IMG/VR virus record: IMGVR_UViG_3300045988_154609
Coordinates: 94,285-158,284 of that record
Strand: one strand, 5' to 3'
Source of the DNA: a virus
DNA length: 64,000 nt
Part shown: in pieces, positions 6,988-26,807 of the stretch
Numbering within the stretch: the first letter of the stretch is position 1
How the letters are laid out: each line of letters starts with the position of its first letter
Program-made: the position numbers and the translations under genes
Notes under the pieces: generated by a model
What the model saw: the letters and a program-made list of their open reading frames with translations, nothing else
What the model was told of the DNA's origin: nothing
Databases searched by the model: none

Positions 6988-8097
6988 CTATCGTAATAAA
7001 ATCCTTTCTTTAAATAATGTGAGAAATTTTTCAGATCCTTCGTCTATTGGACTTGCTTTATATCCAGTAATCATATTCTTATCAAATATAAAACTAATAT
7101 TTACATCATTCTTATATTTGTCATTAATTCTTGTAAGATTTCTTGTTAAGTGTTTAAATTCTTTATCTCCAATTTCTTGAAACTGTCTATCAAAAGCAAT
7201 AATAATTTCTTTTGCTCCAGCATCTTTTAATAATTGAATTTGCCTTGCGGACAAGCTTGAACCGCAACAAGCAACTGAGATATTATTATCCCAACCAAAA
7301 TAACTTGCATACATTAATACAGATTTTTCAGATTCAAAAACAATAGCTTTTCCCATTGTTTTAATATTATCTTTGCTCCAATTTAAACCATATAGATTCA
7401 TTCCAAGAGGATGATTATATAATAACTTATTAATTCGCATAGGTCTATATTTTCCATATATCTCAGCTTCGTCCGTAATTAAAGTTCGACCTCTTAAACC
7501 AATAAACCTACCATTAACATCGAAATGTGGAATTGTAATTTGGTCCGCTCCTGGATAATAACCTATCTGAGCAAGTTTCATAACTTCATTAGTTATTCCC
7601 TCTTTTATCCAAGGCATAATAAGAACATTATAATTAAATCGTGTTAAAATGTCTGTATTAAATTCTTTTAATTCTATCTTATTTTCTTTTAATTCTATTT
7701 CTTTTATTTTTTCATAATTTGCTAAAAGTTTCCAATCTTCAATTTTATCATCAGATTCAGAACCATCTTCATTTCTTCCTGCGATACCGAATCTTCTTGC
7801 AACCCATCGCACCGCATCATTTAGGTCATATTCCTCTGACCATTGAATCTTAGCAACTTTTCTGGTTAATTCAAAAATATCGAAATAACTATCACAACCA
7901 GTATAACATCTAAACAAACCTGAATTATTATAATAATATAGTTTACGACTTCCTTCTCCTGGTTCATTATGACATATAGTAGAAGAGAGGATTCCAAAGC
8001 CAGTGTACTCTGGGTCTCCTCCCCACTCTTGCAATAACTCAAATATATTTTCTAATTCTAAAGCTTCTCTAATTTCACTCTTATCATAATTAATCAT
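6988..8097 (-). CDS. dnaG: DnaG-like DNA primase (zinc-binding domain plus TOPRIM)
   Basis: CHC2-type zinc finger ...CHNEPGEGSRKLYYYNNSGLFRCYTGCDSYFD. TOPRIM region AIVFESEKSVLMYASYFG ... IIAFDRQ. Confidence 0.75.
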   Translation of the reverse strand: MINYDKSEIREALELENIFELLQEWGGDPEYTGFGILSSTICHNEPGEGSRKLYYYNNSGLFRCYTGCDSYFDIFELTRKVAKIQWSEEYDLNDAVRWVARRFGIAGRNEDGSESDDKIEDWKLLANYEKIKEIELKENKIELKEFNTDILTRFNYNVLIMPWIKEGITNEVMKLAQIGYYPGADQITIPHFDVNGRFIGLRGRTLITDEAEIYGKYRPMRINKLLYNHPLGMNLYGLNWSKDNIKTMGKAIVFESEKSVLMYASYFGWDNNISVACCGSSLSARQIQLLKDAGAKEIIIAFDRQFQEIGDKEFKHLTRNLTRINDKYKNDVNISFIFDKNMITGYKASPIDEGSEKFLTLFKERILLR

Positions 8098-15886: not shown

Positions 15887-16879
15887 TTATTTTATACTAT
15901 AACCAAATTCTTTTGCTTTAAAAAAATCTTGCCAATAATCTTCTCTATCATTTAATTGAGATTTTGTACATTCTTCAATAATTTCAAATGAAAAATTTTC
16001 AACTCCAACAGTCTGCATAATAGGATAAAGTTTATTGCGGGTCGGAGTATCTGCGCCCAATCCACGCTTAATATGCTGTTTCCAACGTTCAGCAATATTC
16101 GTACTCTGTCCGACATAACACATATTATTTTGTAAATTTGTGATTTTATAAATACCACAATGAACACCAGAACCAATTACTCTACCAATTAAATCAGTAT
16201 AGGGTTTCTCATAATATGTTTTCCATATAACCTTATTAACAGGTTCAGGATTTCTAAAATGAGAAATAATTTTCCTTAATTCACAAATTTCATTTAAATC
16301 ATCTTGAGTTAAATTTAATTTGTAAAAATCAGTTTTATTCTTATTCTCTTCATTGCGTTTATCATATGCAACTGCGGCCTCTACCTTATGCCGCAAATCT
16401 TCTAACTGAGACTCTTCAAATTGAATCTTTTCATTTAATTTTTTTATCTTTTGGATACTTTCTTGCTCTTTGTCCAAATAATCCTGTACTAAATCTTTAG
16501 CTAATTCTTCATAACTATCTTCTAAACTATGTTTTGTGTCCATAAAAATAGCATAAATTTCTTCTGTATCAGTATGAAATTTTTGTTTATAAAAATCAAG
16601 CATTTGTTGATAATATTTTTTCACACTTTCTTCTGAAGCCTTATATTCCTTATCAACATCTTGTTTTAATTGTTTATATTCTTGCAATTTTTGTTTATAT
16701 TGTTCTTTTAAGTAATCCGTTCTTTGCTCCATTGCTTGTAACTCAAATTGAACGGCTTTATTCTTTTCAAGAATTTCTTTATCTTCCTTTTGAGTAACTT
16801 TGACTTTTGGTCGCATAAACAGATATACTAACCCAGCCCCCAATATAAGACAAAAAATTGCTATAATTACAGTAATCAT
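15887..16879 (-). CDS. membrane-anchored coiled-coil protein with C-terminal GIY-YIG (T5orf172-like) domain
   Basis: N-terminal TM helix, about 200 aa of K/E/Q-rich coiled coil, then a C-terminal GIYKITN...YVGQS...RWKQH...EIIEE nuclease motif. Architecture resembles DUF4041-T5orf172 proteins. Confidence 0.55.
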   Translation of the reverse strand: MITVIIAIFCLILGAGLVYLFMRPKVKVTQKEDKEILEKNKAVQFELQAMEQRTDYLKEQYKQKLQEYKQLKQDVDKEYKASEESVKKYYQQMLDFYKQKFHTDTEEIYAIFMDTKHSLEDSYEELAKDLVQDYLDKEQESIQKIKKLNEKIQFEESQLEDLRHKVEAAVAYDKRNEENKNKTDFYKLNLTQDDLNEICELRKIISHFRNPEPVNKVIWKTYYEKPYTDLIGRVIGSGVHCGIYKITNLQNNMCYVGQSTNIAERWKQHIKRGLGADTPTRNKLYPIMQTVGVENFSFEIIEECTKSQLNDREDYWQDFFKAKEFGYSIK

Positions 16880-23376: not shown

Positions 23377-25317
23377 TTATACGTCAATATTTGCTCTCCA
23401 CGCATTCTCTTCGATAAATTTCTTTCTATAAACAACTGACTCACCCATCAATCCCATGAAAGTTTTAGCAGCTTCTTCTGCATCTTCCATACATATCTGT
23501 TTAAGAGTTCTGGTTTCTGGATTCATAACTGTTTCAGCCATTTCGGACGGGTCCATCTCGCCAAGACCCTTCATACGACCCAGCTCAAAAGACTTTTTAG
23601 CTGTCTTTCTGAACTCCTCAAGAGCCGCATCATCCTTCAGATAAGTAATCTTAGTTCCCTGCGTAACTTTATAAAGTGGAGGAACTGCCGCAAAAATATA
23701 TCCATCTTCAATTAACTGCGGAGCAAATTTCCAAATAAAGGTTAAGAACAATGCTCTAATGTGACTACCATCAACATCCGCATCGGCTGTAATAACAATT
23801 TTACCGTAACGCAATTTATCTTTATTTACAATTACTTTTCCATCCTTAATTTCAAGTCCAAAAGCAGTAATCATACCATCAATTTCTGCATTCTTTAATG
23901 CCTTCGCGAGGTCTGCCTTCAATACGTTAAGAATCTTACCTCGAACGGGGAACACAGCCTGGGTAGCTCTATCTCTGGCTTCTTTTGTTGAACCGGCCGC
24001 AGATTTTCCCTCTACAATAAATACTTCACAAGAAGCTCTATTTCGAGAACTTGCATCTGCTAATGTACCAGGCATTACTGCTCTTTTCTTTATATCCGCT
24101 TTACGAACTGTTTCTTTAGCTTTTTTAGCTTTTTCTCTTGCGGCACGTGCTAATAAAGCTTTATTGATAATTGCTTTTGCGTCATTAGGATGGCTGTCAA
24201 GCCAAATTGTGATTTCTTTTGATACCAGCTTCTGGACCATTGTACGTCCTTCACTTGAATCAAGTTTCTCTTTTGTCTGACCTGAAAAGACTGGGTCTGG
24301 CATCACAAAAGAAAGAACTAATACAAGACCTTCTTTTAACTCATCACCTACGATATTAGAGTCCTTCTCTTTAAGAAGTTTATTCTCTCTTGCATAATTA
24401 TTAATTGCAGAAGTTAATGCAGTTCTAAATCCAGTAAGATGAGTTCCAGCTGTATTTGGAATTGAGTTTGTATATAATTTATAAGTATCAGTATAACTAT
24501 CGTTATACAGCATTGCTAATTTTACACCAATTCTATCCTCGGAAGCTTCGGCATAAAAAACAGATGTAATAGCATTTTTCTTTTTATTCAAATCTTGAAT
24601 ATAATCCAGAATACCATTCTGAGAAACAATTACATCTTCAGCTTTGTCTTTATATTTTAATGTAAAAGTCAATCCAGGAGAAAGATATGCTAATTCCTGA
24701 ATCTGTCTTTTTAATTCTTCATAATCAAGTGAAATTCCCTCTTTAAAAATCTCAATATCAGGATGAAAAGTAATAGTTGTTCCAGTATCTTTTCCCGCAT
24801 ACTTTTCAACTTTAAAATCTTTTCTTTCACCTTTTTCAAATGTCATTGTTGCAATTTTACCATCTCTTTTGGAAGTGACAATAAATTTATCAGACAATGC
24901 ATTTGTTGCTTTTGCACCAACACCATTCATACCACCAGATGTATTATATCCAGTTTTACCAGAACTATCAAATTTAGCTCCTGTATGAAGTTTAGTAAAA
25001 ATATTTTCAAGAGTTTCTGAACCATCTGCTGCTTTTCCAAAAGGAACACCACGTCCATCATCTACTACTGTTACAACATCATTTTCTGTTACTTCAATAT
25101 TACACTTTGTACAATATCCATTTAAGTATTCATCAATTACATTGGAAATAATTTCAAGAGTAATATGTCTAACTCCAGCAGGTCCAACACTACCGATGAA
25201 CATACCAGGCCTAATACGAATTGCTTCTATGCCCTCTAATGTTCTAATATCTTTTACGCCGTAATCTTCTTTTCCTTTTTTTAATAAAATTTCTTCACTC
25301 AATCTAAATACCTCCAA
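23377..25317 (-). CDS. gyrB: type IIA topoisomerase subunit B (GyrB-like)
   Basis: GHKL ATPase N-terminus (IRPGMFIGS), TOPRIM EVFIVEGKSAAGS, and a PLYK... tail. Length is 646 aa. Confidence 0.9.
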   Translation of the reverse strand: MEVFRLSEEILLKKGKEDYGVKDIRTLEGIEAIRIRPGMFIGSVGPAGVRHITLEIISNVIDEYLNGYCTKCNIEVTENDVVTVVDDGRGVPFGKAADGSETLENIFTKLHTGAKFDSSGKTGYNTSGGMNGVGAKATNALSDKFIVTSKRDGKIATMTFEKGERKDFKVEKYAGKDTGTTITFHPDIEIFKEGISLDYEELKRQIQELAYLSPGLTFTLKYKDKAEDVIVSQNGILDYIQDLNKKKNAITSVFYAEASEDRIGVKLAMLYNDSYTDTYKLYTNSIPNTAGTHLTGFRTALTSAINNYARENKLLKEKDSNIVGDELKEGLVLVLSFVMPDPVFSGQTKEKLDSSEGRTMVQKLVSKEITIWLDSHPNDAKAIINKALLARAAREKAKKAKETVRKADIKKRAVMPGTLADASSRNRASCEVFIVEGKSAAGSTKEARDRATQAVFPVRGKILNVLKADLAKALKNAEIDGMITAFGLEIKDGKVIVNKDKLRYGKIVITADADVDGSHIRALFLTFIWKFAPQLIEDGYIFAAVPPLYKVTQGTKITYLKDDAALEEFRKTAKKSFELGRMKGLGEMDPSEMAETVMNPETRTLKQICMEDAEEAAKTFMGLMGESVVYRKKFIEENAWRANIDV

Positions 25318-26048
25318 ATATAATTTTTATGAGAATTTCTTTTTCCTCTACATACAGCAGATATTGTTGAAGAATTTCCACCACAGAATTGAGCAGCTAA
25401 TTGAAGACTATCAAATTCTTGAATTAAGTTATTATCCTTATCATATGCTCCAACTCTACGGCTAGTTTTTGTAATTCTATTACTTTGAACTTGATTCACC
25501 TTTGCTTTTGGTTCAATAATTTGATTTTCATCATCTAAAAATCTAAATGTTCTATTACCAGTTGTTAATCTCGTTCCATTACAAACATTACTAATTTTAA
25601 AACGGTCTAATCCAGTATCTTCACCAGCTTCAGCTAAAGAATTCCAAATATTAAGAATATTTTTTGTTGAGTCAATTTCACAAACTCGCTTTCCATATTT
25701 CTCTCTTTTGGTATCACTCATTTTCTTAGCAATAGCTGGGTCAAACATGGGGCTGTCAGTTTTATCCGTTTGATTATAACCATTTGGAACAACACAATTT
25801 TCTTTGAGAATCCAATTATGCTCTGCTTCAATCATTGCTTCCCAAGTTGGTAAAGTATCAATCACTTCAAAAGTGAAGTTTGCGATACCAAATTCTCTAA
25901 AAGCAACCATTAAAGGATAATTATAATGATGATCTTTTTCGTTAATAGATGCTTCTTTATGTTGTCTCCATCTACGTTCAACTTCAATCGATGAACCAAT
26001 ATAGACCATTCCATTTTTTTGATTAGTTATTTTATAAATTTGATACAT
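25299..26048 (-). CDS. GIY-YIG homing endonuclease (Seg/I-TevI-like, free-standing)
   Basis: N-terminal MYQIYKITNQKNGMVYIGSS...RRWRQH and a C-terminal DNA-binding region. The 3' end overlaps the gyrB start by 19 nt. Confidence 0.75.
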   Translation of the reverse strand: MYQIYKITNQKNGMVYIGSSIEVERRWRQHKEASINEKDHHYNYPLMVAFREFGIANFTFEVIDTLPTWEAMIEAEHNWILKENCVVPNGYNQTDKTDSPMFDPAIAKKMSDTKREKYGKRVCEIDSTKNILNIWNSLAEAGEDTGLDRFKISNVCNGTRLTTGNRTFRFLDDENQIIEPKAKVNQVQSNRITKTSRRVGAYDKDNNLIQEFDSLQLAAQFCGGNSSTISAVCRGKRNSHKNYIWRYLD

Positions 26049-26145
26049 AGAAATTCACCTTATCTTTCTATTATATCATAAAAATTAATAAAAATAAATT
26101 TTCCATTCCGGACCAATTCCGGGGCAAAATCAGTGAAACAAATAT

Positions 26146-26250
26146 TTATTTATCTAGTAGACATGTTGCTACAAATATTCCAGCACGTAATCGAATCGCT
26201 TCAATACCTTCCAAAGTTTTTATGTCTTTTACACCATAGTTCTCAGACAT
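26146..26250 (-). pseudogene. duplicated gyrB 5' fragment (34 codons) upstream of the GIY-YIG gene
   Basis: Minus-strand translation MSENYGVKDIKTLEGIEAIRLRAGIFVATCLLDK* closely matches the real GyrB N-terminus (EDYGVKDIRTLEGIEAIRIRPGMFIG), and the two share about 75% DNA identity. Confidence 0.55.
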
Positions 26251-26405
26251 ATAAATCTCCTTTCAACTTTAAAATCATCATTTTTTTCTTATCATACATA
26301 TATTATAGCATAAAAAAATAATAAAATCAATTCTTAAAATTTTAGTTACGGTCAAAAAAAAATACCCTAAAAGAGAAAATCTTCTCTTTTAGGGTTAAAA
26401 ATCAA

Positions 26406-26807
26406 TTATCCTTTAGCTTTATCTTCATCAATTTGACGCATTGCTGCTTCATATGTAATACCACCTGCGGTATTCTCTTTTGCGGACTTCAATGCATAGA
26501 CCGCATATCCTACGACCTCACTCACGACCGCACCTATTAATGCTACTAATGGAGTAAAGTCTGGATTCGCCATAGTAAGAGTTGTTAAATCAAGGCTTTT
26601 TAAAGTTACAAAGCCTGTGAAAAGTTCTATAATTGTGCAATTTATAAACAAGAAAATAATAAGGAGTTTTGAAGTAGATATTTTAGGAAGGAATTGTTTT
26701 TTAAATTCTCTTTTTTCTTGTTTTAATTTATACTTTCTTTCAAGAACTTCTTTTTCTCTTTGCCAGCGATGTTCTTTAATAGTTATATCACGTTCTTCTT
26801 TAGTCAT
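26406..26807 (-). CDS. putative holin (2 TM helices)
   Basis: Two predicted TM segments and a charged N-terminus. Lies immediately downstream of the lysin gene. Confidence 0.4.
   Translation of the reverse strand: MTKEERDITIKEHRWQREKEVLERKYKLKQEKREFKKQFLPKISTSKLLIIFLFINCTIIELFTGFVTLKSLDLTTLTMANPDFTPLVALIGAVVSEVVGYAVYALKSAKENTAGGITYEAAMRQIDEDKAKG

Follow-up and report, generated by a model that had tools for sequence, protein, structure and literature searches.

Mobile endonuclease ORFs that create "hybrid genes" are known from fungal mitochondria, in atp6 of Allomyces macrogynus and in atp6, atp9, cox2 and nad3 of Glomus sp. (PMC3630166). The endonuclease ORF, of the GIY-YIG or LAGLIDADG type, brings along one end of the target gene from elsewhere, and this foreign segment takes the place of the native one. 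The displaced native segment adjoins the element and matches the gene of a relative without the endonuclease exactly or almost exactly. In bacteriophage T4, free-standing GIY-YIG enzymes of the Seg type (SegF, SegG and others) spread by "intronless homing" (PMC2988022). Their genes adjoin the target, are present or absent among relatives and move with co-converted flanking target sequence, and the endonuclease-bearing genome is shielded by target-site polymorphism. The cut sites of free-standing enzymes lie hundreds to thousands of bp away from the enzyme's own gene (PMC2988022). A further precedent is the T4 td intron, for which homing by one-sided, illegitimate double-strand-break repair with microhomology junctions was described in an engineered plasmid/phage assay with the intron (Parker, Belisle and Belfort 1999, in the summary given by PMC2988022). 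One-sided entry has been proposed before for spread to new sites, and has mostly been seen in engineered assays.

We analysed a window of 64,000 nt of viral DNA (IMG/VR record IMGVR_UViG_3300045988_154609, positions 94,285 to 158,284). The source phages are roughly 190 kb in size and so far known from metagenome assemblies alone. At gyrB the window holds an element that can be read as the 5′ mirror image of the fungal hybrid-gene elements. As in the fungal mitochondria, an endonuclease ORF adjoins a foreign terminal segment of its target, and the displaced native segment lies next to the element, identical to the gene of endonuclease-free relatives. The fungal cases replace the 3′ (C-terminal) end, whereas here it is the 5′ (N-terminal) end. 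Several fungal endonuclease ORFs are fused in frame to the host gene, whereas here the two genes use different frames, with TTGA as their overlap. The fungal host is a mitochondrion, and here it is a bacteriophage. With the 5′ end exchanged, promoter context, RBS and start codon must also come from the element, and both the RBS and the start lie inside the endonuclease ORF. The features are as follows.

26364..26395, minus strand: intrinsic terminator of a holin-like gene, 14-bp stem and T-run (terminator scan)
26302..26330, minus strand: native gyrB promoter, TTGATT, 17-nt spacer and TG-TATAAT, 10/12 to consensus, extended -10
26263-26257, minus strand: RBS of the displaced native gyrB start, AAAGGAG
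26177..26250, minus strand: displaced native gyrB 5′ end, 24.7 codons from the ATG, last letters CGT GCT GGA AT
26146..26250, minus strand: 34-codon ORF, native remnant plus 9 read-through codons (..IFVATCLLDK) and a stop
25198..26176, minus strand: inserted block of 979 nt, comprising spacer X, the endonuclease gene and foreign gyrB codons 1-35
26049..26176, minus strand: spacer X, 128 nt
26122-26108, minus strand: CCGGAATTGGTCCGG inverted repeat within spacer X
26078-26070, minus strand: putative extended -10 TGATATAAT within spacer X, our own reading; the consensus scan called no -35
26061-26055, minus strand: RBS AAGGTGA within spacer X
25299..26048, minus strand: free-standing GIY-YIG homing endonuclease gene, 249 aa (Pfam; PDB match to I-TevI)
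25198..25302, minus strand: foreign gyrB 5′ end, TTG start to Phe35 (TTC), ~67% identical to relative L047
23377..25197, minus strand: native rest of gyrB, codon 36 to stop, 97-100% identical to endonuclease-free L047 and L007, Pfam domains complete

The endonuclease matches the Pfam GIY-YIG family (PF01541; E=3e-12, 47.1 bits against a cutoff of 22.6). Its C-terminal part holds DNA-binding modules, NUMOD1 (26.4 bits, cutoff 22.8) and I-HmuI_NUMOD-like (29.8 bits, cutoff 27), while the SegE family score, 17.1 bits, is below the cutoff of 25. The protein aligns with the catalytic domain of I-TevI (PDB 1MK0/1LN0; E=3e-8), with IY..VYIG present and the equivalents of R27, E75 and N90 kept, leaving the catalytic residues intact in the alignment. 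Like I-TevI, which the T4 td intron encodes, it is modular, with an N-terminal nuclease and C-terminal DNA-binding modules. Unlike I-TevI, it does not lie in an intron, its C-terminal part is of the NUMOD kind, and only its catalytic domain matches a solved structure. Among close relatives the gene is present or absent at one locus, and the flanking 105-nt gyrB 5′ block is co-converted with it. By its catalytic domain, DNA-binding module and polymorphism, it is a GIY-YIG homing endonuclease of the I-TevI/Seg-like kind. Metagenomes hold hundreds of variants, 90-100% identical, and the search gave 551 homologues in all.

The gyrB downstream is complete (25302-23377), with HATPase_c, DNA_gyraseB, Toprim and GyrB_C domains in Pfam. 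A sequence-only reading of this DNA had described an endonuclease, a gyrB-like fragment and a complete gyrB, and we find all three where it placed them, on the minus strand. The 19-nt overlap that it gave for the endonuclease and the gyrB start holds for the longest ORF, whose TTG at 25317 lies inside the GGAGG RBS. The likely start is TTG 25302, 8 nt past GGAGG (25315-25311), so that the overlap with the endonuclease stop shrinks to TTGA. The 641-aa GyrB from this TTG equals the gene call in public assemblies, and the start position is kept in all relatives. After the initiator Met, the foreign N-terminus reads SEEILLKKGKE instead of the native SE, an extension of ~9 residues.

Eight endonuclease-free relatives (L001-L005, L007, L047 and L058) carry lysin, holin, terminator, promoter and intact gyrB in that order, and the 979-nt block is missing from all of them. 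Close relatives of this kind share 97-98% GyrB identity with the window. The holin terminator region is kept in endonuclease-free relatives and bounds the native regulatory region of gyrB on the left. A near-identical copy of the promoter stands directly 5′ of intact gyrB in L001-L005, L007 and L058. In the window this native promoter is stranded 5′ of the remnant. The remnant itself (26250-26177), together with the promoter and RBS 5′ of it, matches the intact gyrB start of endonuclease-free relatives, at 74/74 nt for L007 and L047. The match continues as far as GCTGGAAT, after which the relatives read GTATATCGGTAG and the window reads ATTTGTAGC.

The 34-codon ORF (26250-26146) that begins in the remnant translates as MSENYGVKDIKTLEGIEAIRLRAGIFVATCLLDK*. 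It had been taken for a near copy of the GyrB N-terminus; its first 74 nt (24.7 codons) are indeed homologous, and the last 9 codons are read-through into inserted DNA. Its description as a duplicated, diverged gyrB 5′ fragment is reversed as to which copy diverged. The upstream fragment is the pristine native gyrB 5′ end, and the donor-derived piece is the 5′ end now attached to the working gyrB. In endonuclease-free relatives the fragment sequence occurs only as the start of an intact gyrB and never as a separate piece. The left-junction sequence GTAGCAACATGTCTACTAG had 0 exact matches in IMG/VR, and no donor was found there; a donor would carry ATTTGTAGCAACATG… in the original context of that sequence.

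The two gyrB 5′ copies are identical at 48/72 nt without gaps, which is 67% and not the roughly 75% estimated before. Their similarity is far beyond chance: elsewhere in the window, both strands included, 72-mers match at 40/72 at most. By codon position the identities are 19/24, 23/24 and 6/24, and the last value indicates that synonymous sites are saturated. Glomus atp6 likewise has duplicated segments with diverged DNA (63.5% nt identity) and similar protein. At the right junction, identity between the window gyrB and L047 is ~67% across the core codons of the 5′ end as far as ATG-TTC, then 100% for >110 nt from ATCGG, with the switch beginning at ATCGGTAGT. This junction is sharp and coincides with the codon for Tyr in the conserved motif RPGMYIG. 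Because the switch from foreign to native occurs at ATCGG, the native DNA is short by only ~4 nt (GTAT) between the two junctions. This places both junctions within a few nt and pins the break.

The inserted 5′ end follows the endonuclease and not the host phage. Between the window and L102 the endonuclease is 93%, the 5′ block 92% and the gyrB core 78% identical; for L091 the values are 89%, 90% and 70%. Across four phage lineages, endonuclease and 35-codon block are thus 89-93% identical where the gyrB cores reach only 70-78%, and the two move together, independent of the host gene. This bears out the suggestion that homing or recombination left its mark here and brought in flanking gyrB sequence of the donor. 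A second endonuclease type (L052, L041 and L019) has endonuclease, 5′ block and core diverged to a similar degree. The promoter-proximal part of spacer X, from ~26139 on, is common to other endonuclease-bearing lineages in an eight-lineage alignment.

The right junction coincides with a coding difference. At the Tyr position of RPGMYIG, Phe (TTC/TTT) is found in 25/25 gyrB copies beside this endonuclease type, these loci belonging to four lineages only, and Tyr in 81/81 others. The Tyr-type gyrB 5′ end, as in L047, reads …GGAATGTATATCGG…, and the window-type end reads …GGTATGTTCATCGG…. The junctions bracket ATG^TAT on both sides, which suggests a cut site at or near ATG^TAT, around GGWATGTATATCGG. 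The window contains no intact copy of this target sequence. The Phe codon is presumably an immunity change of the endonuclease-bearing allele, and would correspond to the target-site polymorphism that shields T4 genomes with Seg genes.

We consider it likely that the locus arose by cassette-borne homing of the one-sided (illegitimate) kind, set off by a break at ATG^TAT. The travelling cassette would consist of its own promoter region, the free-standing GIY-YIG ORF and the first 35 codons of gyrB. The enzyme would cut an endonuclease-free gyrB at or next to the Met-Tyr codons of RPGMYIG (step 1). The right end of the break would recombine homologously with the donor gyrB, and the donor 5′ end and endonuclease gene would be copied leftward (step 2). 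The left end would then be joined illegitimately (step 3), since the donor came from a different phage lineage without upstream homology. The outcome would be a working gyrB with a foreign 5′ end, Tyr changed to Phe, and an RBS and TTG embedded in the 3′ end of the endonuclease ORF, from which gyrB is presumably expressed at present. The native promoter, RBS, ATG and 24.7 codons would be left upstream as a dead-end ORF of 34 codons.

In several respects this mirrors the T4 systems. As with the Seg genes, a free-standing GIY-YIG gene adjoins its target, is present or absent among relatives and carries co-converted target sequence. The Seg genes recombine homologously on both flanks with no partial gene duplication, whereas the window is left with one. 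The inferred cut would fall just where the co-transferred block ends, ~105 nt away from the endonuclease stop, much closer than the cuts described for free-standing enzymes. One-sided repair of td, as PMC2988022 summarises it, shares with the proposed event homology on one side of the break and a non-homologous join on the other after variable resection, which yields a new context. The td assay was engineered and used an intron; the window holds a natural, intron-less cassette that recurs in several phage lineages. In a literature search of limited depth we found no description of a phage gyrB GIY-YIG case, of free-standing or intronless homing with duplication or of partial target-gene duplication in phages.

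The same layout recurs in other lineages with native remnants of unequal length, which speaks for the one-sided reading: none in L102, ~4 codons in L081, 6 in L052, 24 in L041 and 24.7 in the window. The unequal lengths could nevertheless reflect later deletions instead of different initial joins. Between the window and L098, spacer X differs by 11.8% and its flanks by only 0-2.4%, which a simple single-event model leaves unexplained.

It is possible, though we are doubtful, that the window inherited its arrangement by two-sided homing and that its donor, from the same lineage, was carrying the remnant beforehand; the remnant would then be a left homology arm of use to the element. The cassette would act like an intron-less insertion inside a coding region. 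The same junction recurs in many genomes (L089, L098-L101), and 125 indexed blocks of the collection contain the P0012 variant. The divergence of spacer X from L098, beside a remnant and endonuclease that are 98-100% identical, fits repeated recombination with different donors in a fixed frame, and 74 nt is a length usable by phage recombination systems. However, 0-6 codons are all that other lineages retain, which shows that the element can persist without a long remnant, and within the lineage the upstream region (promoter and holin gene) already gives homology. Two-sided homing is moreover compatible with a one-sided founding event and does not replace it.

We offer as tentatively the view that the element represents a distinct route, beside introns and inteins, by which a homing endonuclease colonises the inside of an essential phage gene. 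It may carry a replacement gene-start, use the native start as a homology arm and hop between lineages whose gyrB genes are 70-78% identical. With a ready-made gene-start (RBS, start codon and 35 recoded codons), no splicing would be needed.

It is improbable that the 34-codon ORF was retained for a function, whether as a translated leader that sets endonuclease/gyrB expression or as a peptide from the GyrB N-terminal arm that acts on gyrase. Its strong promoter, RBS and ATG are kept, and among the examined genomes of the window's lineage the remnant has 0-1 changes in 74 nt against 15 changes in 127 nt of the adjoining spacer X. Yet the promoter region just 5′ is equally invariant, and at an overall divergence of ~2% the comparison has no power to detect selection. 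Four other lineages hold 0-6 codons or fuse the remnant to unrelated ORFs.

A tandem duplication of the gyrB 5′ end in situ, followed by divergence and by landing of the endonuclease between the copies, would account for the 24 codons directly repeated on both sides of the endonuclease gene. We give it very little credence. Endonuclease-free relatives match the upstream copy at 74/74 nt; the other copy is at 67%, with third positions at 6/24, and that diverged copy is 90-92% identical to the copy linked with the same endonuclease in other lineages. The latter match argues that the two copies are of different origin and did not arise by local duplication.

Just as hard to credit is a group I intron or a split gyrB, with the short ORF as exon 1 or as a needed N-terminal piece. 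One source names the protein "group I intron endonuclease", and the gyrB genes of relatives have internal GIY-YIG interruptions, one with a sub-threshold Intron_gpI match. At the locus itself, an Rfam search by E-value of 24800-26500 for group I introns and riboswitches gave noise around the holin terminator only, and Intron_gpI had no match in this interval even at E<=10. The flanking gyrB sequences overlap by 24 duplicated codons and do not abut, as those flanking a group I intron would. The downstream gyrB has its own RBS and start and a full set of domains, and no residue encoded by the fragment is missing from it. The fragment itself runs into a stop after 9 unrelated codons and is wholly absent from other lineages. 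In "genes in pieces" such as Aeh1 nrdA, two ORFs each encode a non-redundant, required part of the protein. The earlier judgement that a split or trans-spliced gene is unlikely, made on the completeness of gyrB, thus stands.

An assembly chimera of two co-occurring gyrB alleles is scarcely conceivable, for although alleles with and without the endonuclease share metagenome sets, the identical junction and ORF recur in independent assemblies (L089, L098-L101), from other samples and assemblers (Logan ERR209456; ENA ERZ27233694, ERZ27233287, ERZ27233289 and ERZ28573934).

Read as one-sided homing, the locus is a natural, nucleotide-resolved case of a free-standing homing endonuclease entering a new genome with homology on one side of the break. 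It suggests how a mobile endonuclease, equipped with a spare gene-start, may settle within the first 25 codons of an essential gene with neither intron nor intein. Annotators should note that the short "GyrB-like" ORF is a remnant and the real GyrB N-terminus is foreign, which can mislead gene calling, phylogenies and recombination analyses in these phages. RPGMYIG is conserved across type IIA topoisomerase B subunits. Given this conservation, the enzyme might cleave gyrB in rival phages or in the host as well, and so serve as a weapon in co-infection.

A target-like operator 5′ of the endonuclease gene, giving autorepression of the I-TevI type, is a possibility, with motifs that are without statistical support. 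The conserved element ..CCCGGAATTGGTCCGGAATGG.., which lies 5′ of the endonuclease promoter, is at most a speculative candidate for such an operator or for older, decayed gyrB target half-sites. Its local alignment to gyrB 5′ ends was no better than random, 210-2978 of 3000 random genome segments scoring at least as high. The terminator scan called no terminator between the remnant and the endonuclease gene.

Among cultured phages (INPHARED, blastn) there were two short matches only, at 66-69%, and the best protein match was 44% identical. With no close isolate, every comparison rests on metagenome contigs. Other GIY-YIG genes interrupt the gyrB of relatives internally, with inserts at codons 456, ~512-520 and 579; a gathering-threshold Rfam scan of seven related loci gave 0 intron matches at these interruptions, and one insert has the sub-threshold Intron_gpI match noted above. 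The population data comprise alleles with and without the endonuclease, two endonuclease types and, elsewhere in gyrB, endonucleases that are probably intron-borne. They also show changes at the Pro and the Tyr of RPGMYIG, a motif that is otherwise invariant, and as a whole they offer a ready system for tests of homing dynamics.

The genes at this locus are read from the minus strand, and genes for RNase H, gyrA and an NAD-dependent ligase lie further on, downstream of gyrB.

28537-26810, minus strand: endolysin gene
26807-26406, minus strand: holin-like gene
26395-26364, minus strand: terminator
26330-26302, minus strand: strong promoter
26263-26257, minus strand: ribosome-binding site (RBS) ahead of the 34-codon ORF
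26250-26146, minus strand: 34-codon ORF
26048-25299, minus strand: 249-aa endonuclease ORF
25302-23377, minus strand: complete gyrB

A domain search identifies the 249-aa protein as a GIY-YIG endonuclease with NUMOD DNA-binding modules. Its N-terminal domain aligns with the I-TevI catalytic domain, and the catalytic Arg, Glu and Asn are kept. By domain content and behavior, this is predicted to be a free-standing GIY-YIG homing endonuclease of the I-TevI/Seg kind. The probable gyrB start is the TTG at 25302, 8 nt past GGAGG, which shares TTGA with the endonuclease stop codon. Public assemblies call the same start, giving a 641-aa gene. The 19-nt overlap reported in the sequence-only reading is a product of choosing the longest ORF.

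The GyrB-like fragment noticed in that reading is real. The small ORF starts with MSENYGVKDIKTLEGIEAIRLRAGIF, a repeat of GyrB residues 13-35 (DYGVKDIRTLEGIEAIRIRPGMF) as encoded downstream. The two 5′ copies are identical at 48/72 nt (67%, not the roughly 75% first estimated), with matches at 19/24, 23/24 and 6/24 of codon positions 1, 2 and 3. This is above chance, as the best unrelated 72-mer match within the window is 40/72.

Many related phage contigs, mostly 120-200 kb, are present in IMG/VR. In eight of these (L001-L005, L007, L047 and L058; L numbers denote loci or contigs compared with the window), GyrB is 97-98% identical to that of the window, and none carries an endonuclease at this position. 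In the seven compared upstream of gyrB (all but L047), lysin and holin are near-identical to the window's, and the order runs from holin through terminator, promoter and RBS to intact gyrB. The comparison of synteny proposed earlier shows the window collinear with these relatives over the promoter, RBS, ATG and 24.7 codons, after which it departs. The fragment at 26250-26177 matches L007 and L047 at 74/74 nt; these two then read on as GTATATCGGTAG and the window as ATTTGTAGC. The working gyrB is only ~67% identical to L047 from its 5′ end to ATG-TTC (codon 35), and 100% identical over the next 110+ nt, from ATCGGTAGT onward. The native gene was therefore broken after ..GGAAT and resumes at ATCGG.., only ~4 nt (GTAT) being unaccounted for. 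The block now at the break is 979 nt (26176-25198) and consists of a 128-nt spacer, followed by the endonuclease gene and then by 35 gyrB codons of foreign origin. A duplication had been correctly recognized, but the upstream piece, taken to be the diverged one, is the displaced native gene start, and the diverged copy is the one now in use.

An endonuclease of the window's kind (type 1) adjoins gyrB in three further phage lineages, with neighboring genes differing from the window's.

Identity to the window of type-1 endonuclease loci
L102 group: endonuclease 95% (aa) and 93% (nt); 105-nt gyrB 5′ block 92% (nt); gyrB core 78% (nt)
L091 group: endonuclease 90% (aa) and 89% (nt); 105-nt gyrB 5′ block 90% (nt); gyrB core 70% (nt)
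L081 group: endonuclease 77% (aa) and 78% (nt); 105-nt gyrB 5′ block 81% (nt); gyrB core 72% (nt)

The 5′ block therefore goes with the endonuclease and not with the host gene, which bears out the earlier suggestion that donor gyrB flank was carried in, and the cassette moves as a unit. In all gyrB alleles linked to type 1 or to a second endonuclease type (type 2; L052, L041 group, L019), the start codon lies within the final few codons of the endonuclease ORF, and the N-terminus of GyrB is extended by ~6-9 residues. In the window's lineage, alleles without an endonuclease begin directly at MSENYGV, and some other lineages have longer native N-termini. The extension (25302-25267 in the window) precedes a conserved Tyr of the N-terminal arm, whose equivalent in E. 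coli GyrB, Tyr5, contacts ATP in the partner subunit. One 402-kb contig, IMGVR_UViG_3300032167_000002, about twice the group's usual genome size, has two gyrB loci (L073, 156270-170156, and L084, 351313-364056), one without and one with the cassette. Rather than a true duplication, this contig is probably an assembly join of two related phage genomes.

The right-junction codon is Phe (TTC/TTT) in 25/25 gyrB copies adjoining a type-1 endonuclease, drawn non-independently from four lineages, and Tyr in the 81/81 others compared. This association falls exactly at the foreign/native switch point. Phe would remain after recombination between the repeats, and L007 and L047 have Tyr, the codon of all copies without a type-1 endonuclease. 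Endonuclease-free alleles are thus not easily deletion derivatives, and the insertion is the derived state. The window holds no intact copy of the inferred target, and Phe may have a protective role. Separately, the Pro of the otherwise invariant RPGMYIG is substituted in some endonuclease-free alleles: RAGMYIG (L007, L047, L029-L031), RSGMYIG (L062-L064, L074-L077) and HTPGMYIG (L018, L068, L069). Pro-to-Ala is also typical of type-2-linked alleles (L052, L041 group). These substitutions may mark resistance alleles or sites that were occupied in the past.

Type 1 has an essentially constant right junction; that of type 2 lies ~12-15 nt deeper into gyrB. The left junctions vary.

Native gyrB remnants at left junctions
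Window: 24.7 codons, then 9 read-through codons and a stop
L041 group: 24 codons (…RPGM), running on in frame into a 107-codon ORF of unrelated sequence that belongs to the inserted DNA (L041 4816-5200)
L052 (of the window's own lineage; type-2 endonuclease, 64% identical): 6 codons, then a stop after a short read-through
L081 group: ~4 codons (13 nt), fused in frame to a ~70-codon ORF, likewise unrelated and part of the inserted DNA (L081 5704-5930)
L102 group: promoter and RBS only, then spacer
L091 group: no recognizable remnant

Two of the independent left junctions, those of the window and of the L041 group, differ in position by 1 nt, at the end of GG(W)AT(G), again indicating the cut that we infer at ATG^TAT. 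Fixed right and variable left junctions are the asymmetry expected of one-sided double-strand-break repair. Homologous invasion would repair the gyrB side; the opposite end, lacking any sequence common to donor and recipient, would be resected variably and then joined non-homologously. Such one-sided behavior has been demonstrated experimentally in T4 td intron homing with limited exon homology (PMC2988022). Differences in remnant length could partly reflect later deletions. A functional role for the 34-codon ORF is conceivable but improbable, and nothing supports it. The two gyrB 5′ copies differ in origin, which contradicts in-situ duplication. An intron or split gene, already thought unlikely, is rejected, since an Rfam search of the locus gives no family match even at E<=10, the downstream gyrB is complete and other lineages do without the fragment. 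An assembly artefact is ruled out by the same junction in independent assemblies from other samples (L089, L098-L101), and the junction has thus spread or persisted within the lineage.

The closest known genomic outcome is that of fungal mitochondrial "hybrid genes" (Allomyces atp6; Glomus atp6, atp9, cox2 and nad3), where a mobile endonuclease ORF carries in a foreign C-terminal segment and leaves the native C-terminus, identical to that of element-free sister species, just downstream (PMC3630166). The phage gyrB case is the mirror image, at the 5′ end. The element must therefore also supply translation start signals, which are encoded inside its own endonuclease ORF. In the literature searched, neither phages nor gyrB were found described with such an arrangement.

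Within the cassette, the spacer (26049-26176) differs from that of L098-L101 (2373-2500) at 15/127 positions (11.8%). Divergence is 0-2.4% in the surrounding promoter region, remnant, endonuclease gene and gyrB, and the genomes are otherwise 98-100% identical. Either a patch recombined in from a different donor or a local hot spot of mutation could account for this. Immediately ahead of the endonuclease promoter (26100-26135), all lineages (L041, L052, L081, L091, L102) keep a G+C-rich element. It contains two tandem ..C(C/A)GG(A/T/C)AT(G).. motifs resembling the CCNGGNATG (Pro-Gly-Met) part of the gyrB target; local alignment of the element to gyrB is no better than background, and the likeness is not statistically supported. 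The motifs could have been left by earlier insertions, or could form an autorepression operator in the style of I-TevI.

The window's own gyrB has no internal inserts. That of many relatives is also interrupted internally, near codons 456, 512-520 and 579-585, by other GIY-YIG genes (L005 7704-8738; L007 7503-8594; L052 7359-8534 and 8911-9946; L098 4809-5750; L091 5561-6554). L052 has three endonuclease genes in or at a single gyrB. The L071 codon-579 insert (7722-7986; 264 nt, ORF-less) matches Intron_gpI below threshold (23.4 bits, E=6e-4) and has the conserved GAAGAAAUAGUC core. The internal inserts are probably group I introns below the Rfam gathering score.

Elsewhere in the window, a 330-aa ORF (15887-16879, minus strand) has a GIY-YIG catalytic domain (aa 241-322, E=6e-11) that is confined to the ~90 residues at its C-terminus. 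This domain is not followed by a DNA-binding module, and the 240-aa N-terminal part is without assignment. Many relatives have a comparable hit ~7.6 kb downstream of gyrB. The window may thus have a second endonuclease gene here, perhaps in fused or degenerate form.
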